From assembly GCF_018977255.1 (NCBI RefSeq), contig NW_024704742.1, positions 66,838,001 through 66,902,000 on the forward strand: DNA of 64,000 bases, in the 5' to 3' direction. This stretch comes from Callorhinchus milii (lineage: Eukaryota). Made by a program: the position numbers and the translations under genes. Under the pieces are notes generated by a model. That model ran no database searches. It saw nothing but the letters and a program-made list of their open reading frames with translations, and had not been told where the DNA came from. Positions 6,194 through 64,000 of this stretch are shown one piece after another; position 1 is the first letter of the stretch; each line of letters opens with the position of its first letter.

Positions 6194-6503
6194 TAATAAT
6201 AATCCTTGCATTTGTTATAGCGCTTTTCACGTCGGGAGGACGTCCCAAAGCGCTTCACAGAATATACTGTAAAGTGAATTGACTGTATATTTGTGGGCGA
6301 ACGCGGCAGCCAATTGCGCACAGCAATGTCCCACAAACAGTCATAGATTGAAAATGACCAATTTATTATTGTTTTTGGAGGGATTATTATTAGGCTCTGT
6401 GTGGAGTAAGGAAACTTGCCCAAGGTTTCGCCCTCTGCCTGGAATTGAACTCAGGTCTCTCACTTGCAAAGCGAGTGCTCTAACCACTGAGCTACAGGAC
6501 TCC
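6194..6503 (-). mobile_element. Full-length young tRNA-derived SINE
   Basis: Reverse complement is nearly identical to 2296-2610. Confidence 0.92.
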
Positions 6504-9500
6504 GATTTATCAAAGCTCAAATAATATTAAAACAAACTTTGTTTTAAAAAGATACCTAGGACATTCTAACTATTATGAACTTTGGTTATCCTATGATGAG
6601 AGATTTCAAAATTATTGCGGTGGCAAATTAACATTCACAAAAATAGGCACAGGAAGCAATTGATTTAAAGCATCAACATTTTTTACAATAAACAGACTTG
6701 CATTTGATATAACATTTTATCAAGTTGAAAAGTCTCAAACTGCTTCACACATGGGGTTACTTTGAAGTGTATAATGATGGTTGTTATGTAGGCAAAACAC
6801 AGTAGCTGAAGTTCATCCATAAATAGCAATGAAATGATTGATCAGTTACAGTAATTAAGGTGTCAGCCTCCGTGTCAGAAGATTGTGGGTTCAAGTCCCC
6901 CCGTCAGGACTTTGAATTCACATAGTGTAGGCTCATGCTCCAGCATCGGGCGGGCGGGGTGTGGTTGCATTGTTGAAAGTGCTGTCCTTCAGACAAGATG
7001 TTAAACTGAGGTCCTGTCTGTCTGTTCAGGTGGATTTTAAAGATCTCATGGCACTATTTATGAAGAGAAAGGAGTTTCTCCCCATGTCCTGGCCAACAGT
7101 AGCCCATCTAAAACTTATCATTCACTTCATGGCTGCTTGTCCAACACTGCTATGCATAAATTGGCTGTCACATGTGCCTACAAAATATATCCAACAACAA
7201 CAAAATTACATTTGTCATTTTCACGTCGGGAGGACGTGCCACGCTGTCACAAGACCTTACAGTAATCCTGTAGGGTACTTCAAGAGGTGCTTCTGATGAA
7301 AAAGGGCCTCTATTAAATGCAAGACTTATTATTATTGTATAACCTTGGCTATGTGATTGAATTTGAATGAGAGTGGAATATTGGCCAGGAATCTGGAAGA
7401 GATAATTACTCTTCTTCGAAACATTACCAGGGGATTTTTAATATTCACCTGAACTACCAAAACAGGCTGATGTCTAAGTCTCACCTAAGGGGCAGTACTT
7501 CCACCAAAGCAAAACTTCCCGAGTAGGTGTCAGCCTACCTCAGCTGGCAGCACTCTTACCTGAGTAGGTTAAGAAGCGGGGACTCCGGGTAATTTTTAAG
7601 TACATCACACGAGCTTGAGGAAAACTATGAATGGGTCAAGAATGAGTTGGAGCGATGGTGTTTCGGAATTCTTGCTGGCTCCCAAGATAATTATAACAAT
7701 AAGCTAATAATAATCCTTACATTTGATATTGTGCCTTTCTTGTCTCAGAAAACTTGACTACAGTGACTGTGTATTTCGTAGGTGAACAAAGTAGCACATC
7801 AGCGATGATCAATTTATATAGGGGTTCATTCAACAGGACACCAGGAGAAACTCCCTCTCTTTTCGAATAGGGCCATGGGATATTTAATGTCCAGCTAAAC
7901 AGGCAGATGGACCTTGGTCCGAAAGGCAACACCTCCAACAATGCAACTTACCATCAGCACTGCATTGGAATGTCAATTTAGCGTACGTAAGCTCAAAGTC
8001 CCGATACAGGTCTTGAACCCACTGACTGACTCAGAGGCGAGAGTGCTTTCAACTTAGCTGGTTGACACACATCTTATCACATCAGCACATATTACAGTAT
8101 TGAAAAAGGCCATTTGGCCACAACTAGTCCACATGAACTTCCAGCCCTCCTAAAAAGTCTCACAGCGCTTTACAGGATTTTACTGTGAAATGCAGTGACT
8201 GTATTTTATCAGACTGGAGTTGTTTGAGGTTATTCTATTTTACATTAAACAAATATGTTGCAATATTTCTTATATTGTGGAAGGGTAAAAAAAATTATGA
8301 TTTCTGTTATATGAAAAACAGAAAAAAAATCAAAATCATGACTCAAAATGGTTACATTTCAGTCATTTAGTGTTTCTAAGAGTTCACATTCAGGATAATT
8401 TAATTTGAATTGACTCAACTTCTAATACTGCACTTCCAGTTACCACAGGGGACAGGGCTGTCCTGTATACATATAATGTATAAAAAGATCTGCTTACTGT
8501 TATTCCCAAAATCAAATCTGCCAAAATATGAATTTAAATTAAAAGCATGATTGCAAATTTGGCGAGGATAGGAGGTGAGATAGCTATTTTACATTGAACA
8601 AATACAATGACTCAGTTACCTTAGGATAGCCCTAATGTTACTCTATTCAGACTGCGGATAGAGGAAACGAACATTTACATTTGCTTATTTGTTCCCAAAC
8701 ACTGATGAACTGCACTTCTGTCCTATACAACCAATCCTTCCAGTTTCATATAAAAGGAGACAGGAGTCAATGCAGAATACACCCAGCAAGTTGACAGACA
8801 ATTGCCACTTTCCCCCAAACAGAGAATAAGTCCACCACAACATAAAGGTGAGATAAAACAAAGAAAGTTTACAGGGTAGAAGGTAGCCATTCAGCCAACG
8901 GTGCTTGTGCTGGTGTTGTCTCACTGTGTGAGCCATCTATGCTAATCTCTTTGCCCCTTCCTTTTCTAATACCCTTTTTTGATTATTTCCTATCAAGTTT
9001 TTATCCAATTATCGAAAAGACCTTCAATCATCCAAAACAACTTCTGATGCGATCTTGTAAATGTGAAATATGCAGAGATGTCTGTATCTCAGGACACTGG
9101 GCTCATTTAAAAAATAGCTTCTTACTGTAATGAGAGGTCAATAGGGTGGAAAGGATGAGATAATATGGGCTGAAAGGTCTTCTTCAGCCAAACCTCTTCT
9201 GTGATGTTATATCCTTTTCAGTAAGCATGCACACGGAACACAGAATTGAAAGACGAGACTGACAGGAATTGCAATGCAAGTTCGATACAAGATTTTCAAC
9301 AGATCATAGAGATTTGACTGGAGGAGCTTCCTGCGCATAGTGACCCAATGTGCAGGAACTGACATCAGAGGAGCCGTAGAAGTTGGCCATTTTTTTGGTG
9401 CAGCAAGCAACTAACACCAGTGGTGTGTGTACCACGTCCGCAGTAACCACAGTGACACAGCACTGTAAGTGAAGCACACTACATGGGGGCAGGATTGGCC

Positions 9501-9845
9501 TGTGCATACATATAAATGGGTTAGATGTAAGGTGTAGATTAGGTATAAACCAGATGTAAAAGAGGACAGGGATAGTAGAGCATTAAACCAACAAATTCAA
9601 GAAAAACAAACTCAGGGGTGGGTGGGGTGGGGGGGGAGAACGGGGGGAAACAGATTCACGACTGAAAAGATGAGAGCTGTTTGTCTACAACAAATGCATG
9701 TTCAAATAACAATGTGGTAACGTACTCAGTGGTCAGTGGGGTGGGGGGGATTAAGCATACAGCTGATCATCTTATTGCTTAATAAGGTAGGTTTATTTAT
9801 TTTGCTCTGGCAGAGGGTGCTGAGCCAGCAGCTGTGCAAACTCAC

Positions 9846-12900: not shown

Positions 12901-13961
12901 TTTGGGTACGGTATATGAAATAGCTCAATCAGGGCTCCCTGATTTACCCTCAGCTTTTGAGAAGCATCAGACCTCAGCTCAACCCTTCCCACAGTCAAGG
13001 TTTTGATGATGGAGAATTTACCAGTGAATGGAATCGCGAGAATGATCACCGAGCTTATTGTACAGCTACAGCAATGAATCCCGAGTGATTGTCTATCTCT
13101 ACATCCTAAACCGGAGTCAAGANTTTTTTCCTGCTTACGCTCCATTCCCCTCATTTTGTCATCAGAAAGCTGAGCCTTTGACCATCACCTCCCGAATACT
13201 CATCCAAAAATCTCTTAAGTCTTTCTACAGCACCTCTACCAGTTTTCAAAAATCTCCTAAAGAAAAATACTCTCTCTTCCATCACACCTTTGGCCACCTC
13301 TAAGTTCCTTCCATTTATATCCAGCACCACTCCCATTGTTAAACACTCCAAAATGTTCTTTTATTTGAATGCGGCTCTATATTTGTATGTTGTTCTCCAC
13401 TTAAGCACTATTCAAAGTGTCGAATCTTCAATGTACTGGTACAGTGGTACACTAAAGTGGCATGGAGAGTGGAATCTAGTGGATCATACCTGCGGCTGTG
13501 CCTCAGCAAGTAACCAACTTCAGCGGGGGAACCTTTCCATAGCTGATTACAGAGCAGCATTGGATCTGAAAACCAATCGCCTCCCTGACCCTCGGTTACA
13601 TTATACCTTGGAGAATGGAGCCCGGAGAAGGGTAAGAGTATTTTTTTAAAAAAAAGTGGGAAATTTTAAAATAAAATACTTGCAATAGATTTTGCATTTA
13701 AGTGGCTTGAAGGCTCAGACCATAACTACATTTACAATTCCATACTTTTACAGCATTGAAACATGCCATTTGGCCTAACCAGTCTGTGCCAGTGCATAAT
13801 ATATTCTGAGAAAATAATATCTCGGGATTGAAATTAATATCTCGGGATACAGTACATAGTTTGGGACACGACATGTCAAGCGACTGCCAGGATGGTGGAA
13901 GGCGAATTAGATGGACCTTGGTCTTTTTTCGCCTAGCAAATGTTCTTATGTTCTCACTCAT

Positions 13962-18710: not shown

Positions 18711-18740
18711 NNNNNNNNNNNNNNNNNNNNNNNNNNNNNN
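18711..18740. other. Assembly gap (30 N); true size unknown. A single N also occurs at 13123
   Basis: Run of n characters. Confidence 1.
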
Positions 18741-18963: not shown

Positions 18964-21538
18964 CTGTAGGAGGATTTGGGTCACACACCAAAAAAAAAAA
19001 GGTTGATTTTAGCACGGGAGCTCCACATCAACCTTCTGCAGATATGCCCAAGCCCCCAGCTTTATACTGGTGCTCAATTATCCGTGCGAGCTGGTGCTCA
19101 ATTATCACAAAAGTTAAAACCAGCCCTTGTTAGCTCCCTTAACATAGGTTGATCATCAATGACCATAAAAGGTAGTGACAGGGTTTATCCTCCTATCATA
19201 CTGTCATTTATTGGGCTATTTTCATACAGATAATCTTCCAGTGCGTTTTAATGCGTTTTCCATTTATTAAGATCAGACAAATGTGTCTATAGTTGACAGA
19301 TGTAACGTTTACAACTCTGAATAAAACATCCACATTTACTTGTTTCCAGTCTATTGGTTGAAATTCTGGTGGACAAGTATTGAAATAATTATTGTCATTT
19401 AGTTTTTGTTTTCCCGCCCAAATCAGTTACATTCACATCGTCCGTAGAACCATCTAGCAATCGGTAATTGGTGCAGCCGATCACAGCCTGGCAAGCTCAA
19501 ACCCATTCAAAACAATTACTTGCATTTATATAATAGCCTTCATGCAGGATAGCACCTTGGAGTGTTTTGGAGAAAGGTTTGCATAGTTAGTAGCCCAATC
19601 GAGGGAAGAGGGGAAATGACTGTAGATATGATCGAAGAGAAGGGTCTTTAAGGTAGTTAGGGAAGTCAACAATGTCAACAATTTCAAAGTGCTGTTTTTG
19701 ATGAGATGAGCTGACGTTGACTGTAAAGCAGGTAAGCTGATCTCGACCCAAAGACAATTTTCTTAAAAATGGCTTGCACAAACACTTGTCAGCTATAAAT
19801 CAGCATTGATCTTTACTGGTGAACCAGGGTGAGGATCGGGAATAGGAGCAGTTCGGGAGGCGATAGGGGCAAGGGTGTCGAGTGTGGTGGAGAGGGTGCT
19901 GTGGAGGAGATAAATGCAGAGGATGGTTGGTGCAGGAGGTGAGCTGGAGTGAGGAGTTCAGAGGACTCCAGGGCATCGAGAGGGATTGCGGGGAGATCTT
20001 CTTCCAGGGTGGTAGGAGATGGTGGTACGTTTGGAGGCAGTGGGAGAGGGATATAGGAGTTGAGGGAGATGAAATAGTGGTTCGGGCCCAATCTCAGGTG
20101 AAGAAGGTGACCAAAGGCGCAGTCAAAAAGAAAGGTCTTCAGCTGAGACCTGAAAATAGGAAGAGAGGTGGCGAGAATAATAATAGGAGATGAGAACAAT
20201 TCATTCCATCAAGTGAACCATGGCATAAAAATTATGTATCTGACATAACTATTTGATTGTGCTTTAATTGCTTTAATCAAAATTGGTCATTCACCACCTG
20301 GCTCTTTGTCAGACATGGTTTGTGCACATATTGGCTGCTGAGTTTGCCTACAAATACGCAGTCACTGCACTTAATTACTGTAAAACACTTTTTCTACAAT
20401 TTGACATTATACATGTTAAATCAAACGCAGGGATTATTTTTATTATTATTGGTGCTCACCATTACATCCTCAACATTTCGAGACATGCTTTATGTGAAAG
20501 GCATTATACCTTTCACAGGATGCTATAATGCAATGTATACTGTCTACTTTTTCATTGAAAGGTGCGTGCCAGCTCAGGAGGTATTTCTGTTTTTAGGTGA
20601 GAACAGGCTTCGATAGTAGCGGGATCTGGGCATCATTTTGGGATCTTTTCCATTGCCTCAACATAAGCCTTAACCATTTCATGATAGATGTCTTCCAACG
20701 ACCAAAAATTTGGAGATTCAATTGGGAATAAAGTATGTTAATCCTAACTAATAGATAATATTAATCCTTACAAATGGTCTAGCAACTTTAATGTCGGGAG
20801 GACATCCCAAAGCGCTTTGCAGAATATACTGTAAAGTCACTGTTTTGTAGGAGACAATTTTACGCAAAGCAATGTCCCAGACAACCATAGAGTGAATAAA
20901 GTAGATGTTCTTTTAATGAGTGGGTGTCTTTGTATGAAGAATCAAAGAAAAATAGAAATATGGAGAGAATGTGATTTTCAGTGTCGTAATTAGAAGGGTG
21001 ATTATTATTACATTGGCAGATATTCTGCTCCTGGAAATATCCCAGTGGATTAGCTCATTAGGTAAACTCCCCCTCTTCCCTGCCCTGATTTTGTGAAAAT
21101 GTTGGACCCAAAACTGCTTGCTGTTGTGTTTTAAACTAGCTATCCCACGTAGATTAGCTATTTTTCCCATGCCAGTCTTTGGGATCTTGCTGCTGTAAAT
21201 GACGGACATGTTTGCTTGTGAAAAAAACAGTCACTACGCTTGACAGCAATTACCTGTGAAGTGCTTTCAGACGTTTCATGATTGAATATAATTTACATTT
21301 ATGAAGGATGTTTTGATGTGATAAGGCACTCATTTTGGTAACAAAAATTGCAATGCAATTGCAAAATGACTTGAAAATACATTTGAATAGGGACTTGAAG
21401 GGTTATTACAAAGTGCCTACCAAAAATAAACAGGAATTTACAATGATATTTTAAGGATGCCAACAGTAAGTAGACTTTTGTTACCAAGTAATCTCGGGGC
21501 CCAATTTCAAGTTAATGCTTCATTCCATTTCTTTGTAG

Positions 21539-22206
21539 GTGACACTGGATCAAATTGCAGCTGCAATAGAAATGCCTGCGCTATTTTCTACAACAGTTCC
21601 CATTATATGTACCCGTTCAACATTGAGTTCCACGTCTTTGCATCTGCCATGTTTTACGTTATGTGGAAGAACTTTGGGGCGTTCCCTGGAAGAGCACAGA
21701 GCTCTGAAGGTTACCTTTAGGACCTACAGTCTAATGGCAGGTCCAGTTCTGGGAGCTGCAGTGTTGGCAGCCACAATAATAATAATAATAATCCTTGCAT
21801 TTGATATAGCGCTTTTCACGTCGGGAGGACGTCCCAAAGCGCTTCACAGAACACACTGTAAAGTGAATTGACTGTATAGGGGATTCTCATTGGTGTACAG
21901 CTCACAGTGGGACATTCAACAGCTATGCTTTATCTATACGGTATCACGGTGCTTTGGCTTAATGTCTGCAGCAGCTGCAGCCGGTCTGGTCAATTATAGA
22001 GTTGACAAAACATCTCTGGATTATTGCAAAAACCCCACCAGGAAGCTGATGGCAATCTGCTGGTGCGCACAGCAATGTGCTCTTGGTTTATGTCCTGGTG
22101 TTCCATCGTGGCTGCTGTTTGTGGGGAAACACAGTCCCCTCACACGAGGCTGAACTTGTCATTATCTGTCCTGGTCATCACTGAGAAATACCTACAGCAT
22201 CTGTTC
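21539..22206 (+). pseudogene. Otopetrin-1-like (proton channel) large exon, disabled by at least 3 frameshifts, a SINE insertion and 3' truncation
   Basis: Begins at a ctttgtag| acceptor. Frame-hopping translation gives NCSCNRNACAIFYNSSHYMYPFNIEFHVFASAMFYVMWKNFG / RSLEEHRALKVTFRTYSLMAGPVLGAAVLAATI / [SINE] / ...AMLYLYGITVLWL / MSAAAAAGLVNYRVDKTSLDYCKNPTRKL / DGNLLVRTAMCSWFMSWCSIVAAVCGETQSPHTRLNLSLSVLVITEKYLQHLF. This is collinear with OTOP1 motifs YLYPFNIEY, LYVLWKNIG, KNPARKLD and EKYIQNLF. Confidence 0.92.
21775..21878 (-). mobile_element. 5'-truncated young SINE inserted in the otopetrin-like exon
   Basis: By eye it matches the tail of the copy at 43312-43533 base for base, and it interrupts the coding homology. 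Confidence 0.93.
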
Positions 22207-22623
22207 ACACGTCGATCAAAATCCCAGGCGGGGGCGGGGCGGGGGCGGGGGCGAGAGTGGGGGCATTTGCTGCGCTGAATCTTCCGATTGGTCAGAATGT
22301 ACATCGATCAATATTGAGGGCGGCGCATGGGCGGGACGAAGAGCCTATTGTCTTATTGTCCCGTGGCTCCACGCGGCCCGGGGGTGGGAGGGGGGAGTTG
22401 AAGGGTGGAACTTCCGCTCTACTAAGCAGGTTGGGTTGGTCAGTGTATACGTCTATCAGCAGTGCGCGCGGGTGATTGGCTGTTTGGGAGAGCGAGGGGG
22501 AGGGGGCGAGGATGACGGCAGCTTCACGTCAGGTGTGTTGTGCTGCGCTCTCCCCCGTGACGTCAGGCTGACCAGCAAAACGAAGGGGGAAAGCGGAGCC
22601 ACAGCAGAGGAAATCATTACTTT

Positions 22624-23095
22624 TATATACATATTATATATATATATACACACACACACACGAAACTCTGGCCCCGTAAACTTTCTGTTAAATTAACTCG
22701 TTTCTTTCTCCGCGCCCGGGGGGGAGGAGGAAGAGGAGGAAGAAGAAGAAGATGAACTGTCGTCTCGCGCTCCACTCGGTTTTCGTATTTTTTAAAAAAA
22801 AGTCGGTTTGACTTCGACGAAGTTGATTGACGAACGGGGACAAACTTTTTGCCTTTGAATAAACCCCATCCGATTCCCCTCCTCTCTGACACACACACAC
22901 ACACACACATTCTCCCTTTCTCTCTCATTTTTTTTCACTAACACTCCCTCTCCTCTCTCTCTCTCTCTCTCACACACCCCCTTTTTTTCTCTGATTTTCT
23001 CTCACGCTTTTTTTCTCACTCTCGCAAACATCCTCTTCCTCTCTCCCTCTCTCTCTCTCCCTCCGTCTCTGTCTGTCTTGTCTGTCTGTCGCCCT
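22624..23095. repeat. Microsatellite cluster: (TA)n(CA)n ~22624-22661, (GGA/GAA)n ~22722-22752, (CA)n ~22888-22909, (CT)n ~22950-22970 and ~23035-23060
   Basis: Directly visible simple repeats between the promoter core and the MAEA ATG. Confidence 0.9.
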
Positions 23096-23149
23096 CACGT
23101 CCGGTCTGGTCTACCCATGTTGCCTCGGAGTATTGATAGTTGAGATAAG

Positions 23150-23217
23150 ATGGCGGTGCAGGAGTCCGCTGCTCAGCTCTCGATGGCGTTAAAGGTGCAG
23201 GAATACCCACTCTGAAG
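23150..23217 (+). CDS. MAEA: MAEA coding exon 1 (MAVQESAAQLSMALKVQEYP[T]LK); 68 nt as written, one C short of an open frame
   Basis: Manual translation from ATG 23150 gives the MAEA N-terminus. Donor is AAG|gtacgg at 23217/23218. The sequence reads TAC CC ACT CTG AAG where TAC CCN ACT CTG AAG is needed. Confidence 0.95.
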
Positions 23218-24506
23218 GTACGGCTGTTGGTGAACCCCGAGGCCGCCGCGCCTGTCCGTGTCCCCCCCTCCCCCCCCCCACCCCCCACCCCCATCCTCGG
23301 CTGCTTCACCCATTTTCTGAGCAGAAAGAAGGGCTGCTATTTTTGAGTGAAAACACGACCTTTTTTAGTCGCTGACTGAGGGGAGGGGGGAAAAAAAAAA
23401 GAGGCCGTTTCAACCTCTTTTGCAGCTATTTTTCCGAGGCAAATCGTTTGTGTCACCGCCCCCACCCAGTGCCGAATTCAAGGTGAAACCAAACCGCGCG
23501 GTGGTTGGTTTTCTCTCTTTTATGTAAAACGGTAATCGATGTATTCTGTGTGTGGCTGTTCGGGAGGGGGAGGATGGCGAGAATGCCACGGTGCTGCTTG
23601 CGATTAATGTTCAATACAAAATGTCACATTCACTTGTCAGGTTTTTTTTTCCCCCCTTTGTGAGGTTCGGCAAACTGAGAGCAACTGTGGTCCTTGTGAG
23701 CGACCCGGAAATTGTAAACAAAAATGTTCAGACTGTCATTATACTGAGAAGAAGCTCAAAAGAACATTGGGGGAGGAGAGAAAGTAGGGGAATGGGAAGA
23801 CAGTAACAGGCTTCAGTGGGGCAGCTGCGATGGGCAGAATGGCCTCTTTTTGTGTTGTCAACTTTCTATGATTCGTGTAAAGTTGGGACCCATTACAGAA
23901 GTATAAAACCAAATGAGAGTATCTTATTTCGTAAACACTACTATTTAATGTTCTGCTATTTTATGCTGCGGCCTACACTGCAATGGGAGTCAGATTCCTA
24001 TTAAATTAATTGGTTTGTCTAAACAAAGCAGCAATGTTTCGGGTTTGTATTCTCCTCTCCCCCTCCCCTGAGGTGGTTTGTGATTAAATAGTACAGTAAT
24101 GTGTTAGAAAAGGTTGACTTTTAAAATCTATTCTCCTCTGCAACATGCTTATGGGTTATTTTAGTCTGAATCAAATATTGACAAGTTGCTATATGATGCT
24201 TTTTCTTGCAGCCTGGCTGGACATTCACTGTTGTAAATAAACTGTTGGATTAGAACATTTTAGTTACATCATTGATGAGTCAGTGTTTTTCTGGAAATTG
24301 TTGACATTTCAGAAAGTCAGCCTTTCTCTTCCCAAACAAATAGTCAGTGATTTATTTTCCTATGTGAAAATACAAAAACATTCTTTCATTTAAAGATTCA
24401 GTTTTTCAGTGAGAGAACCATTTTTAACCAAAGAAATATGAATCCAAATAATATCATTGATTGTTTCAGCATTTTGCAACCAAACAATTTTAACCTTTGT
24501 TTGTAG

Positions 24507-34714: not shown

Positions 34715-35750
34715 ATAATACAACAACAAGATTGCAATTATAGAACGCCTTTCACGTCGGGAGGACACCCCAAGGCGCTGGACAGTTGGGTCGGGACCCG
34801 AGCAGGGGGGAAATGGTCAGGGTGAGGGAAGGGAGGGAGCGAGGAGGGGGAAATGGTCAGGGTGAGGGAAGGGAGGGAGCGAGGAGGGGGAAATGGTCAG
34901 GGTGAGGGAAGGGAGGGAGCGAGGAGGGGGTAGAGAGTCAAGAGGGGAGCTGAAGGCTCGGTTGAAGAGAAACGTCTTGAGACCGGCTTTGAAGGAGGAA
35001 AGGGAGGAAGCGGCGAAGGCACTGGGGGATGGAGTTCCAGAGCCTCGGGGCTGAGAGGCTGAAGGCCCGACCACCGATGGTAGGGCGGTTGGGGCGGGAG
35101 ATGTGGAGCAGATCGGAGCCAGAGGAACGGAGGGTACGGGCAGGTAGGTAGGGGGATAGTAGGTCGGAGAGGTAGGAGGGAGCGAGGCCGTGAATGGCCG
35201 TGTAGGTGAGGATGAGGATCTTGAATTCGATCCTCTGGGGGATGGGGAGCCAGTGGAGGCGAGCGAGGGTGGGAGTGATGTGGTTGTGAAGCCTGGTGCG
35301 GGACAGTACATGAGCTGCAGAGTTCTGAATGACCTACAGCTTGTGGAGGGAGGTGCCGGCAAGGCCGATGAGGAGAGAGTTCCTGTAGTCCCGGGGGGGA
35401 TGGGAATGAGGGAGGAGAGGTTGGCTCCCCGGGTCTGTGTCCGGGGTGGCTGGCGAGTATGGTGGGGAATGGGGCAGTGGCTGCTGGACAGCCAACGCCG
35501 AGTGCCACGATGAGCCCGGCGGAGGATTCCTGGGCTGGAACAGAGGGAGGTTGTGGGAGGGTTAAGTGGTTATAGAAGGCGAGGGGACGGAGAGAGAGAG
35601 GAGGACAGAGAGGGAGAGATGCAGAGGGGGGAGGGTTTGGGGGGAGATAGGAGGGGGGAGGGAGAGAGGGGATGAGGGGACTCGGGTCAGAGAAGCAGCC
35701 ATAGTGCGCACGCGGGGACCAGGAGCGAGCGGTCAGGTGGGTTAGCAATG
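34715..35750 (-). mobile_element. L2-clade LINE derivative: 3' end (34715-35391) fused to a different C/T-rich segment (35392-35750)
   Basis: 34715-35391 is highly similar to 52124-52727, and the similarity stops abruptly at gtagtcc. Confidence 0.88.
34811..34930. repeat. Three perfect tandem copies of a 40-bp unit (aaatggtcagggtgagggaagggagggagcgaggaggggg) in the LINE 3' UTR
   Basis: Directly visible; the sibling LINE at ~52224-52268 has one unit. Confidence 0.95.
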
Positions 35751-35887
35751 TTTTGTTACCAAATGTATTTGAACAACATTCTGTATGATTCTAATATTTC
35801 TGAGCATAAATGAATTGGATTAATTGTCATATTACTGCAACCTGTTTAGTTTACAGATGCAAAAATAGTCTTGTTTTTCTCTTGCAG

Positions 35888-36091
35888 GCAGTTGAGTCGA
35901 TACAAGCTGAAGATGAGAGCGCAAAATTGTGTAAACGTAGAATTGAACACTTGAAAGAACACAGCAGTGACCAAGCAGCAGCAGTTAATATGTGGAAGAA
36001 AAAACGCATGGACCGTATGATGGTGGAACACTTGCTGCGATGTGGCTACTATAACACTGCGGTTAAACTGACTAAACAGAGTGGAATTGAG
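35888..36091 (+). CDS. MAEA: MAEA coding exon 3 ([25 protein letters not shown]...[29 protein letters not shown]; LisH region)
   Basis: ttgcag| acceptor and GAG|gtgagc donor; 204 nt, phase 0/0; lies within ORF 35810..36106. Confidence 0.97.
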
Positions 36092-42865: not shown

Positions 42866-43311
42866 GTACTTAGATAATTGCTGCTTGTATTTTTTAAAAT
42901 ATTGGTCCCTGATTTATAGTTTTGGTAAACAAAACACAAACACAAAATACTGTAGATGCTGAAAATTTTAAAACAAAAGAAGTCCCTGGGAACACTCAGC
43001 AGGTCAGGCAGCATCAATGAAGAAAGGAAAACGAGTCAAAGTTTCGGATCCACGACCACTGAAATAATCACCTACGATTACATCTTGAGAATGTACTACT
43101 ATATATCAAAGGTGTTATTGTGAACTTGCATAGATTACTCAAGAAGCTACACTTTTGTAGGCAGCCACTTCGCACACAGCAATGTCCCATAAACAACCTT
43201 GAAGTGAATGATCAATTCTGCTTGGTAGATTTTTGATCAGGTTACTGGGAGAAACTCCATTCTATTTTCGAATAATCCATTGGGATCTTAACATTTTGAA
43301 CAGAGAGGTTC

Positions 43312-43533
43312 AATAATAATAATAATAATCCTTGCATTTGATATAGCGCTTTTCACGTCGGGAGGACGTCCCAAAGCGCTTCACAGAACACACTGTAAAG
43401 TGAATTGACTGTATATTTGTGGGCGAACGCGGCAGCCAATTGCGCACAGCAATGTCCCACAAACAGTCGTAGATTGAAAATGACCAATTTTTTTTATTAT
43501 TGTTTTTTGGTTTTTTTGGAGGGATTATTATTA
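43312..43533 (-). mobile_element. Young SINE, 5'-truncated (similar copies at 51263-51483 and, older, 59993-60182)
   Basis: Near-identical to the 3' two-thirds of 6194-6503. Confidence 0.9.
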
Positions 43534-50150: not shown

Positions 50151-52123
50151 TAGAAGGACACATAAGGATTGAGCATAGATTAAACATCCATGATTTATAA
50201 TAATAATAATAATAATACATTTGATATAGTGCCTTTCATGTCAGGAGGACAACTTGAAACAATGCATAGGATATTCTGTGAAGTGTAATGACTATTTTGT
50301 TAGCAATTGTGGCAGCCAATTTGCCTACAGCAATGTTCCACAAACAATGTTTGGGGTCAGAGCACTATTTCTGAGCTATGGAGTTTAAATATTGCTGTTT
50401 ATGTCTATGCTTCCATCAGATGCAAAGATTTATGTGGAAATTTCCATCACAGAGGTCCATTCGGCCCCTAGTGTCAATGTTCAGAATTTAACTGTTAACT
50501 GACAAATAGGGAATAACTCTTCAATCGATATATCCAGAATAAGGACATACAATAATCTGAAAATAAGAACTGAATGGTTTAACTTGTAAGAATGTGGATT
50601 GTATCAGACATGAACAAATGATGATGCAGATATTTGGGAAAATAATTTTAAAGAGTAATAATAAACCTTACATTTGGTATAGAGCCTTTCATGTCAGGAG
50701 GACGTCTCAAAGAGCACTTCACAGGATATATTGTAAAGTGTAGTGACTGTATTTGTAGGTGAATGCGGCAGCCAATTTTGGCATTGGAATGTCCAACAAG
50801 CAGCCATAAAGTGAATGACCAATTTTATTTGGGAATTATTTGCCAGGACAATGGGAGAAACTCCTCTTTTCGAATAGTACCATGGAATCTATAATATCCA
50901 CCTGGACAGGCCTCAGTTTAACGAAGGACAGCACCTCCAGCAATGCTGCACACTGCATTGGAGTGTCAGTCCAGGCTATGTGGGTTGAACCCACAATCTT
51001 CTTCTGACTGAGAGGCAGAGTGCTACGGATTGAGCCAGGCAGATACATGAGTGAAACATTCAAAGCACAGGAGGCAATTTAACCCATTGTATTTGTGTTG
51101 GTGAAAACCCATTGAAGGTTTGGGCTTTCGTCCCATTTTCCAACACTGCCTCCATAAAATCTATTAAAGAACATTTTTTATGCATATCTGTTCCATACAC
51201 ATGCGAGAGGGTACTTACGTCATACTCAACTGGGGCTGTGTGGAATAAATTCTATGCATCTTAATAATAATCCTTGCATTTGATATAGCGCTTTTCATGT
51301 CGGGAGGACATCCCAAAGCGCTTCACAGAACACACTGTAAAGTGAATTGACTGTATATTTGTGGGCGAACGCGGCAGCCAATTGCGCACAGCAATGTCTC
51401 ACAAACAGTCATGGGTTGAAAATGACCAATTTATTATTGTTTTGTTTTTGAAGGGATTATTATTAGGCGTGTGGAGTAAGGAATCTTTTGCAATACTACA
51501 CTGGATTTACCTTGCAGTGATGACAGTGTCTGGATTCGCTGTCTGTGTGTGATTTTGCAGTCTTCAGCAGTTTCATTAGTGTCGATATGACTCCTGAGAG
51601 TTAGTTTAAGCACCGATATTTATTTCTGATGATGGTCTTGCTCATGTTTTGTGGGTGAGTCCAAAGTAAAATCTTGAGGATTTTTGTATACTTTAACCTG
51701 TATTACAAGTTGCTGTTTTGAGTCATTTGCCTTACGATCTGGGCCAGTTGTTTAAACAATATGTGCCAGTTATCTATTGATGGCTTTTCATTAATTCATA
51801 GCATTTGATGTGACTTTCATGTAGAATCATCTCAAAGTGTTTTACAGATAATTGCTATCAAATTACGCCCAGAAAATTGATGGTCAATTCATTTTACAGT
51901 GTATTCTGTGAAGCTCTTTGAGACGTCTCAACGACGTGATGAAGCGCAATATCAAATGGAAGTATTATTATGAGCTTGCCCAGGATACAACTGATACAGG
52001 AGATGATATCAGCTGAGGAGTTCCAACTAGATGCTTGCTTTCCTTCTCTCTCCCCCTCCCACTTCCCGAGTTGAACTGGTACAGAACTAGCTCTACCTTC
52101 TTTGTATTGTGATTACTAAGTAC

Positions 52124-53603
52124 AACAACAACAACAACAAGATTCCATTTATAGAGCGCCTTTCACGGCGGGAGGACGTCCCAAGGCGCTGTACAGTTGG
52201 GTCAGGACCCGAGCATTGGGGGGAAATGGTCAGGGTGAGGGGAGGGAAGGGAGGGAGCGAGGAGGGGGAGAGAGTCGAGAGGGGAGCTGAAGGCTCGGTC
52301 AAAGAGAAAGGTTTTGAGACCGGCCTTGAAGGAGGAAAGGGAGGAAGCGGCGAAGGCACTGGGGGATGGAGTTCCAGAGCCTCGGGGCTGAGAGGCTGAA
52401 GGCCCGACCACCAATGGTAGGGCGGTTGGGGCGGGGGATGTGGAGCAGACCGGAGCCAGAGGAACGGAGGGTACGGGCAGGTATGTAGGGGGATAGTAGG
52501 TCAGAGAGGTAGGAGGGAGTGAGGCCGTGAATGGCCTTGTAGGTGAGGATGAGGATCTTGAATTCGATCCTCTGGGGGATGGGGAGCCAGTGGAGGCGAG
52601 CGAGGGTGGGAGTGATGTGGTCCCGAAGCCTGGTGCGGGACAGTACACGAGCTGCAGAGTTCTGAATGACCTGCAGTGTGGAGGGAGGTGGCGGGAAGGC
52701 CGGCGAGGAGAGAGTTCCCATAGTCCAGCCTTGAGGTGACAAAGGCGTGGACCAGGGTTTCAGCCGCGTGAGGGGTGAGGTAATGCCGTAGTCTGGCGAT
52801 ATTCCGGAGGTGATGGAAGGCGGTGCCAGTTGTGGTGCGGATGTGAGGGAGAAAGGACAGCTCAGGGTCGAACAGAACCCCGAGGTTCCTGACTGGCTTT
52901 GAGAGGTGGAGAGTGCAGCCTTGGATGCTGATGCTGTCAGCGCCTGAGGTGCGGAGGCGCTGACGTGAGCCAATCAGGAGGGCCTCAGTTTTTCGCACGT
53001 TGAGCTGAAGAAAGTTGTCTCTCGTCCAGGACTCGATGTTGGACAGGCAGCTGTCAGGACATCGGTGGTCGTGGAGTTGAGGGTAGAGGAGGAAAGGTAG
53101 AGTTGGGTGTCATCCGCATACATGTGGAAGTTAACTCCATGTCTGCGGATGATGTTACCTCAGGGGGAGCATATAGAGGGTGAAGAGGAGGGGACCGAGG
53201 ACAGAGCCCTGAGGGACACCGCACGAGACAGTACGGGGGCCGGAGGAAAAAACGTTTGTGGAGACAAAGTGAAGACGGTGGGAGAGGTACGACCTAAACC
53301 ACTCAGGGACAGTGCCTTGAAGGTTTAGGTGGGAGGACAAGCGGTGGAGGAGGATAGTGTGGTCGACCGTATCGAATGCTGCCGATAGGTCGAGGAGGAC
53401 GAGGAGACAGAGGGAGCCCTGGTCACAGATGGTCAGGATATCATTGGTGACCTTGACCAGGGCAGTTTCTGTGCTATGGGCAGCACGGAAACCCGACTGA
53501 AGGGGTTCGAATAGTGCATGGTTGGAGAGGAAAGAGCGCAGCTGAGAGGCGACAACTCGTTCCAGGACCTTGGACAGGAAGAGGAGGTTGGAGATGGGCC
53601 TCC
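52124..53603 (-). mobile_element. 5'-truncated L2-clade LINE: reverse transcriptase to 3' end, frameshifted
   Basis: ORF fragments [44 protein letters not shown] and [13 protein letters not shown], plus HMYADDTQLY on manual reading; (TTG)n tail; possible 6-bp TSD aagtac at 52118-52123 and 53604-53609. Confidence 0.95.
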
Positions 53604-58318: not shown

Positions 58319-60445
58319 GTATGTTGGGTTTATCAACCAAGATGGTTTTGAGTAGCCCACAATAAACCACATCTTGTAAGTTTTTGGATGATTTACATGG
58401 TAGATTAGATGTAACTGATTACCTCAAAGCAATATTTTATTAGAAAAGTATTACAACCCTTCAGCTTTATAACAAGATCAAAAAGTAACTTTTGTTCGAA
58501 TATGAAGCAGTCCAGGAAGCTACCCTGCGTGAAGGGCCCTATATAAATGCATGTTGTTGTAGAAAACAGTTCAGTGCCTCTTTGATCCGGGGAAGGGGTA
58601 GAGGTAGAGCTCCCATTTCAGGAGTTGCCTTGGTGCTGAGTTCCTGATACAGCATAGGTCTTCATTACAGAATGCAATACATATATTGTTTGTTAGGTGG
58701 GAGTCCAACCACAGGGAGGTACAGACAGACTAGGATTCTATTAATGGGCTAGTGAACATTTTTGTTGGCTATGTTTTTGTAGGTTTTCAGTTAACACACT
58801 GCATAGGTTACAGTAAAGTGAATTTTGGCAAATGCATGACACTGCCGCTTCTCTGGGATAAGGGAGGAACCACATTCAGTGTTTTTTGTTTCCGACTCAT
58901 CTTTACCTTCCCACTCACTTCAGTTCCGATCCCTAGCTCGGATGTGAAAGACACAATATATATGCAAATTTGAATCGTATTGTACTCAAAATTAACTAAT
59001 TCCTCAGTACCATCAGTGAGCAAATTGCACTCAAATATGGTTGGACCCTATTATAAGACACCAGCTTGGATCCATAAACGCACACCATTTTTTGTCGGTC
59101 CCCATTATAACTGGTCTTGTTATACAAATGGCCATTGATCAGCACTCCTGGGTCATCAGATCATTATTGGCATTATTTCCTGTGCATGAATAATAATTCT
59201 TGTATTTGATTTATCGCCTTATCATGTCAGGAGAACGACTGAAATTACTTCACAGGAATTACTGTTAAGTGGAGTGACTGGAATTTGTAGGCAAACACAA
59301 CAGCACAATTGCGCGCAGCAATGTCTCACAAACAGCGATGAAATGAAAGCCAATTTTTTGGGGGGGATTGTTGGCCATTGTTGGGAGAAACTCCTCTCTT
59401 CGAATTGTGCCAGGAGAACTTAAAACATCCACCTGAACAGGCAGACGGGGTCTCGGTTTTATGTCTTGTCCAAAGGACAGCATCTCCGACAATGATACAC
59501 CCCCCACCACTGCATTGGGAGTGTCAGCATAGTCTACGTTCAAGTCTCGACGTGGAATTTGAACCCACAACCTTCTGACTCTGAGGCGAGAGTTCTACCA
59601 CTGAACCAAATGGGAACACAAACTGAGAGCTCAAGTGCATGTTGCTTTTAAAGGCAAGATATTTTTGTTAATGTAACCTCCCTATTGCAAATATATTTCT
59701 TTAGCTAAAATTCTATGTCTTATTTGGTCCAATTTAAATAAATAGATTTGAAAATATTTTTACAGTAATGCATGAGCGAATTGCTGATGTTTTTAAGTGA
59801 AATCCTATACGTAACCGTACAGTTTTGAAACTGCTTTCATATTCCTTTGTTTTGCCAACAAAATAATCAATTCACTTTACAATATATACTGTCAAGTGCT
59901 TTGAGACGTTCCAATGTCGTGATTAGACGTTATATCAAATGAAAGGATTATTATTATTCTAGTTGCTCAAACTGTGACTGTCCTTTGTTGAAATAATAAT
60001 AATCCTTGCATTTGATTTAGCGCCTTATCATGTCTTAGAGATGTCTCAAAGCGCTTCACAGAATATACTGTGAAGTGAATTAACTGTATATTTTGTGGGT
60101 GGGACACAACAACCAATAGCACACAGCAGTGTCCCACAAACAGTTGTGGATTGAATGACCATATTTTTTTTAAGGGATTATTTCAAGAATAATTACATTT
60201 GTTAAAATCGTTAAAATAGCCAATGAATGAACTAGTATAGTCTCACTTACAGCTAATGCTGAATAGTACAAGTTGGCAGTTTCTGAATCTGAAGATTTTA
60301 CAATTTAATCCCAAATATTTTGCATTTCATCATATGATGAATGTTTGTTACATGTGTCAGCTTCTGTCAGCACTCGCCTCAGTGCAGTTTGATGTAACAG
60401 ATTACAGCATGACCTGTTATTGAACCATTTCTTTTGCTTTTGCAG

Positions 60446-63604: not shown

Positions 63605-63930
63605 TTATAGTGGTCAGAGCACTCGCCTCACAAGCGAGAGACCTGGGTTTGATTCCCGGGAAGACAAAATGTTGGCCAAGTTTGCTTACTCCTCATGCGT
63701 CTGTTTACCTAGCAGTAAGTAGGAACACGGTTGTTAGTTGATTGATGGATTGTTTTTCTGGGGTTAATAATTCCTTCAAAAAATAATAATAAATTGTTTA
63801 CTTCAATCCATGACTATTTGTGGGACACTGCTGTGTGCGATTGGCTGCTGTGTTTAACCCACAAAATATACAGTCAATTCACTTTACAGTACATTCTGTG
63901 AAGCCCTTTGAGATGTCTCAAAGAAGTGAG
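63605..63930 (+). mobile_element. Older-subfamily SINE
   Basis: tagtggtcagagcactcgcctcacaagcgagagacctgggtttgattcc head and the family body. Confidence 0.82.
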
Positions 63931-64000
63931 CTTGTATCGACTCAACTGCCTGCAAGAGAAAAACAAGACTATTTTTGCATCTGTAAACTAAACAGGTTGC

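Follow-up and report, generated by a model that had tools for sequence, protein, structure and literature searches.

The 64-kb window analysed here, which comes from the genome of Callorhinchus milii (elephant shark), contains, on its plus strand, a remnant of an otopetrin exon at 21539..22206 and, directly downstream, the CpG-island promoter and first coding exon of MAEA at 22227..23217. The MAEA segment was delimited by a CpG scan, by a motif scan yielding consensus matches only and by matches to MAEA exons, and these last bear out an earlier sequence-only reading that had named MAEA as the downstream gene. GC boxes occupy 22231-22248 (matches at 22231, 22236 and 22242), CCAAT-type matches lie at 22287 and 22475 and CRE-type matches at 22513-22565, and the first coding exon has its ATG at 23150 and its donor at 23218. 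Two similar motifs (TCGATCAA then GGCGG) are present in the promoter at 22212-22231 and 22305-22324, the first of which begins a few bases past the point where the remnant breaks off. In two probable RNA runs, contig cover was seen in bins from 22488-22591 onward and none in 21968-22487, a distribution that is neutral as to expression.

Upstream of the remnant, Pfam searches of 133 of the 139 non-repeat ORFs of at least 40 aa in the first 21 kb (1-21500) detected no gene; the six omitted ORFs overlap N, and short exons escape such a search. Among the 133 ORFs, the sole hit was a minus-strand match to Connexin at 9414-9596 (E 7.5e-4, 19.8 vs 31.3 bits), which was sub-threshold and was taken as chance. 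An assembly gap of 30 N occupies 18711-18740, 2.8 kb 5' of the remnant; one isolated N stands at 13123.

Several observations concern MAEA itself. Exon 1 in the window is without one C at 23205 that was found in 4/4 runs, so that its coding part measures 68 nt where 69 are needed; this missing C is an assembly slip, and it is probably the reason why the NCBI model P0275 starts at a Met in exon 2 and is truncated. The window also reproduces intron-derived quirks of the C. milii MAEA models: it contains the letters with which P0275 reads through at its end and, at 59386-59514, a block that P0277 takes from an intron. These matches point to C. milii as the source of the window; the sequence-only reading had correctly presumed a chondrichthyan, the species being a holocephalan. 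On the minus strand, MAEA introns hold two repeat remnants at 34886-35391 and 52219-52726 that are about 94% alike over 511 nt, and by eye the ORFs in them resemble the ends of LINE reverse transcriptases. At the very end of the window, the minus strand of 63929-64000 repeats the MAEA intron 2/exon 3 junction (35837-35908 on the plus strand) in inverted orientation, with 100% identity over 72 nt. This copy is cut by a SINE at one side and leaves the window at the other; it is either an artefact of assembly or another partial duplicate, a very young one.

Identity of the remnant and its annotated parent

The otopetrin identity of the remnant was established by profile, structure and protein searches. 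Its first piece (21541-21717) matches the Pfam family Otopetrin (PF03189) with an E value of 2.7e-8 and 33.6 bits, exceeding the cut-off of 27.8, and has Otopetrin1 6nf4 as its top match in the PDB (E 5.4e-14); searched singly in Pfam, the other six of the seven pieces of the remnant gave no otopetrin match. In a large protein collection, the sole match of the query 21541-21717 was C. milii OTOP1, with 93% identity. When C. milii OTOP1 was in turn compared with the window by tblastn, a single collinear match was obtained at 21535-22206 (E 5e-52), which covers the 5' portion of the large exon of OTOP1 and residues ~236-430 of the protein P0121 (195/614 aa). Thus, the collinear match across frame changes that had been recognized from the letters stands, and the peptide does have a significant otopetrin relative. 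No other OTOP1 exon was found in the 64-kb window by tblastn with P0001 as the query, a search that did not extend to the alternative first exon of P0121; the remaining matches all had E >= 0.014, and the best of them was dismissed as proline-rich noise. A full otopetrin comprises 12 transmembrane segments (PMC3038909, available text), and the remnant, with its 195 residues, a stop at 21718 and no further exons in the window, does not encode a functional channel.

We then compared the read-through peptide of the remnant, written with X at the frameshifts, with other otopetrins over 181 residues. It is identical to C. milii OTOP1 (XP_007895535.1 / P0121; A0A4W3JE50 / P0001) at 166/181 residues (91.7%) across residues 236-430, to the OTOP1 proteins of 10 sharks and rays at 107-120/181 (59-66%) and to six OTOP2/3-like proteins at 59-75/181 (33-42%). 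In a tree of the remnant and 26 selected reference proteins, among which C. milii OTOP2 and OTOP3 were not included, the remnant groups with OTOP1 and not with OTOP2 or OTOP3, and C. milii OTOP1 is its sister with a support of 0.999. The two differ in integrity: the parent model is an open frame of 614 aa, whereas the frame of the remnant is broken after 44 codons, and the remnant alters three residues that are invariant in 19 other OTOP1 proteins (P239S, W411R and N428H). The sequence-only reading had offered a duplicated OTOP1 fragment and a lost otopetrin paralogue as alternatives; the identity values and the tree position uphold the former, while the latter is not supported, in view of an annotated full-length OTOP1 and the lack of other host-gene exons in the window.

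C. milii OTOP1 is represented by four full-length annotated models, including XP_007895535.1. For OTOP1 and MAEA alike, the contig given has a length of 139,202,109 nt, and the remnant is probably on the chromosome of its parent, as judged from the equal size of the listed contigs only. The two genes are listed on equal-sized contigs also in Cetorhinus, Latimeria, Rhinatrema, Microcaecilia and Ambystoma. The usual neighbours of Otop1 are Tmem128 and Drd5, as found in 20/25 vertebrates, and the word 'shark' is absent from the available text of the paper that describes them (PMC3038909). An otolith record for C. milii is cited in the accessible part of PMC6937729; this record fits a working OTOP1 and is no test of it.

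Lesions, SINE insertion and breakpoints

Lesions were mapped by a frameshift-aware alignment to C. milii OTOP1 and compared with assembled contigs from other samples; 17 of the 24 listed runs (five studies, one species label) contain part of the stretch, and the contigs of four runs were aligned. The first lesion on the plus strand is a +1 frameshift at 21673..21676, after which the OTOP1 frame meets its first stop at 21718. It is followed at 21892..21921 by a +1/-1 pair (21892, 21908) and an in-frame deletion of seven codons (21 nt) at ~21921, none of which was seen in the contigs of other samples, and at 21957..22047 by a +1 at ~21957-61 and a -1 at 22046-47. A further +1/-1 pair at 22075/22080 is probable from the codons, where the alignment scored two substitutions. 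The sequence-only reading had listed two +1 shifts and one -1 shift, all of which were recovered by the alignment, and had omitted the pair at 21892/21908, the seven-codon deletion and the probable pair at 22075/22080. Confirmation in other samples was obtained for part of this list: the first frameshift and the truncation junction recur in their contigs, but the -1 at 22047 does not. Over 21988-22164, neither X1 nor X2 yielded a contig of the window's type, and at 22047 the one contig aligned in each of them contains the G that the window is without. The -1 at 22047 may be an assembly slip, and because the assembly drops a base in MAEA exon 1 (23205), some of the other listed frameshifts are possibly errors as well. 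The single-base indels lie mostly in short base runs.

The first frameshift is present in X1 record 5 and X2 record 14, both of which cross it with 0 gaps; both carry, in addition, a G>A change at 21666 that creates a TGA, and a second X1 contig is without that change. A frame-intact version was recovered from X5, a probable RNA run (type guessed): over 21555-21763, its record 22 has 208 letters on 209, with eight substitutions and one gap. The annotated parent differs from the remnant at six residues within this interval, and record 22 is read as the parent because it fits that annotation.

The SINE insertion noted in the sequence-only reading was recovered as a 101-nt insert in the alignment at 21779..21879. 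It is a 5'-truncated SINE in antisense orientation (minus strand), comprising the 3' ~100 nt and an (ATT)n tail, with ATA at both flanks. The insert is the 3' terminal part of an abundant element and matches 43311-43415 with 100% identity over 105 nt; further matches of 97-100% lie at 2514-2611, 6194-6289 and 51262-51357, and a complete copy of the repeat at ~2296-2611 has, by eye, a tRNA-like head. The near-identical copies in the window indicate recent activity, and the inserted SINE would accordingly belong to a young subfamily. It resembles the C. milii families CmiSINE (SINE2-1_CM / SINE2-1B_CM) and SacSINE1-CM in abundance, tRNA-like head and microsatellite tail (PMC5499810, in the portion available); CmiSINE and SacSINE1-CM have their 3' ~160 bp in common, which is all that the insertion holds, and the assignment to a family is tentative.

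The remnant is preceded by a pyrimidine tract and a TAG at 21536-21538, and the splice acceptor had thus been correctly described as intact. Contigs ~90-98% alike tile 20369-21538 in X1, X2 and X5; among them, X5 record 17 spans 20369-20781 with 23 substitutions and 21 gap letters. The stretch 20369..21538 (plus strand), which ends in the acceptor, was probably co-duplicated as the 3' part of an OTOP1 intron, and the left breakpoint may lie further upstream than 20369. On the right, homology to OTOP1 stops in the middle of the exon at ~22205-06 without a splice donor, and after a breakpoint at 22205..22210 (plus strand) the MAEA promoter follows; the abrupt end shortly before the GC boxes is therefore as first described, the distance from the remnant to the first box at 22231 being ~25 nt. 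The junction of OTOP1 and MAEA promoter is real, because X2 record 15 bridges 22168-22619 with one substitution, its OTOP1 side being 39 letters long and its promoter side more than 400. Disabling lesions thus exist in living animals, the first frameshift in X1 and X2 and the truncation junction in X2.

Between 20369 and 22205, several contig types were found per place, and the contig depth summed upstream (~28-130) may be a sign that more than two copies exist, although depth is not copy number. X1 record 6 departs from the window at 22205 and continues for 159 letters on other sequence. It shows only 10 substitutions, and the eight that are listed include just 3/8 of those needed for the annotated OTOP1 protein; because these are too few of the required changes, record 6 is not simply the parent, but represents either a mosaic contig or a sibling copy in decay. 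Together with the two contig types that carry the first frameshift, it hints that a further decayed OTOP1 copy possibly exists elsewhere, alleles being the alternative explanation. Contig joints at repeats were also considered and were rejected, as they run from repeat to repeat with short sides.

Constraint, age and origin of the copy

With 91.7% identity to C. milii OTOP1 and its place beside that protein in the tree, the copy is younger than the separation from the shark and ray lineage; it arose within the holocephalan lineage from OTOP1 itself and is no ancient paralogue. In an IQ-TREE analysis of the OTOP1 rows, the branch of the remnant measured 0.083 and that of the parent ~0. Of its 15 residue changes, three fall at columns that are invariant in 19 other OTOP1 proteins, vs 1/55 in the parent lineage (Fisher p=0.029, with small numbers); as invariant columns make up 36/181, 3/15 is the share expected of changes blind to constraint. 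This pattern points to relaxed selection on the remnant. Two of the 15 differences, T307A and S308A, match the majority state of sharks and rays, implying that the parent also changed after copying or that the copy reverted. For dating, we used the divergence of eight changes over 208 nt, mostly on the copy, and of 23 over 404 nt upstream. At the rate of 1.0-1.1e-3 per site per My given in the available part of PMC5499810, the copy would be roughly 25-40 My old; an alternative rate that the same paper discarded is ~6x slower.

Taken together, our data make it very probable that the remnant is an unprocessed, partial duplicate of the single C. milii OTOP1 gene, the parent having been retained. 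The acceptor stands where protein homology starts, related contigs reach upstream to at least 20369 over a putative intron, and an intact parent is represented by four full-length models and by the frame-intact X5 contig over 21555-21763. We propose that a DNA-level event copied at least ~1.8 kb, made up of terminal intron sequence and the initial 570 nt of the large OTOP1 exon, and that the copy was inserted directly upstream of the MAEA GC boxes, by a route that may have been break repair or template switching. The copy would have been dead on arrival, because it came without promoter, upstream exons, donor and 3' end, and it would then have gathered substitutions, small indels, the 21-nt deletion and a young SINE without constraint. 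It would thus be inactive as a channel gene, the parent remaining, and sibling copies of it are possible.

Other origins can be weighed against this duplication. The least probable, close to negligible, is a processed, retroposed OTOP1 fragment: the remnant is a single coding block and L2-type retroposition machinery has been active in the C. milii genome (PMC5499810, available part), but protein homology halts exactly at the AG acceptor with intron-like sequence 5' and no join to the previous exon, the 3' side is truncated without poly(A) at 22206, and related contigs run upstream of the acceptor. The sequence-only reading had already argued from the acceptor against a processed pseudogene, and the absence of an exon-exon join and of poly(A) supports this. 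Hardly more credible is an ancient otopetrin paralogue that was kept beside MAEA in other cartilaginous fishes and lost in chimaeras as a unitary pseudogene. The equal-sized contigs of OTOP1 and MAEA in several jawed vertebrates and the two Otop1 genes of Xenopus (PMC3038909, text available) would suit such a history; however, the tree places the remnant beside C. milii OTOP1 (0.999), its identity to elasmobranch OTOP1 is only 59-66%, the 15 chondrichthyan entries among 120 listed of 397 matches amount to one per species, and the window has no other exons and a mid-exon end at a sharp junction. A unitary pseudogene is further at odds with the data because a full-length C. milii OTOP1 is annotated, and the lineage-specific loss of a sensory channel that had been suggested is not supported, given this gene and the frame-intact version in a probable RNA run.

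Error-rich reads of the true OTOP1 that were mis-joined to the MAEA promoter would explain the remnant as an assembly artefact, and the proven one-base slip at 23205, several other spots with extra letters at nearly full depth, the position of the single-base indels and the 30-N gap at 18711-18740 all lend themselves to this view. The artefact is nevertheless largely refuted by the contig that bridges the junction; moreover, X1 and X2 show the first frameshift with 0 gaps and with a nonsense variant of their own, and read errors do not typically produce a 21-nt deletion, a SINE or 15 amino-acid changes. We regard an artefact as very improbable. A slightly larger, still small probability is given to co-option of the fragment, either as an upstream regulatory part of MAEA or as a template for antisense RNA pairing with OTOP1 mRNA (~96% alike). 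Divergent transcription from CpG-island promoters is common, and the fragment lies ~25 nt from the GC boxes of such a promoter. Human PsiOTOP1, a duplicate of OTOP1, has ESTs (PMC3038909, as far as available). Co-option is opposed by a substitution pattern that looks unconstrained and by the young SINE and the sample-to-sample variants within the fragment. An equally slight chance attaches to a reading in which chimaeras possess a few related OTOP1 duplicons and the one beside the MAEA promoter is read backwards by divergent transcription; if this were true, the antisense RNA would be ~96% complementary to OTOP1 mRNA, and a housekeeping promoter would control an otolith and taste channel.

The value of recognizing the remnant as a partial OTOP1 duplicate lies mainly in annotation. 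It spares a false claim of sensory-channel loss in a reference cartilaginous fish, and it draws attention to a near-identical sequence by which read mapping or primers for OTOP1 can be misled. In addition, markers among Callorhinchus species could be drawn from the junction, the SINE and shared lesions. We found no publication on the MAEA-side OTOP1 copy in the main texts of open-licence papers.

The copy also provides an independent parallel to human PsiOTOP1, its nearest precedent (Hurle et al. 2011, PMC3038909). Like that pseudogene, it is a segmental, unprocessed OTOP1 duplicate that is ~96% like an intact parent and carries stops and indels. The human pseudogene, however, is pericentromeric, located on chromosome 2, another chromosome than that of its parent, within a ~60-kb duplicon that includes PsiTMEM128, and it has a promoter with ESTs (PMC3038909). 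In contrast, the elephant-shark copy arose independently, is much smaller, contains part of one exon, has no promoter of its own, is probably on the chromosome of its parent and adjoins MAEA.
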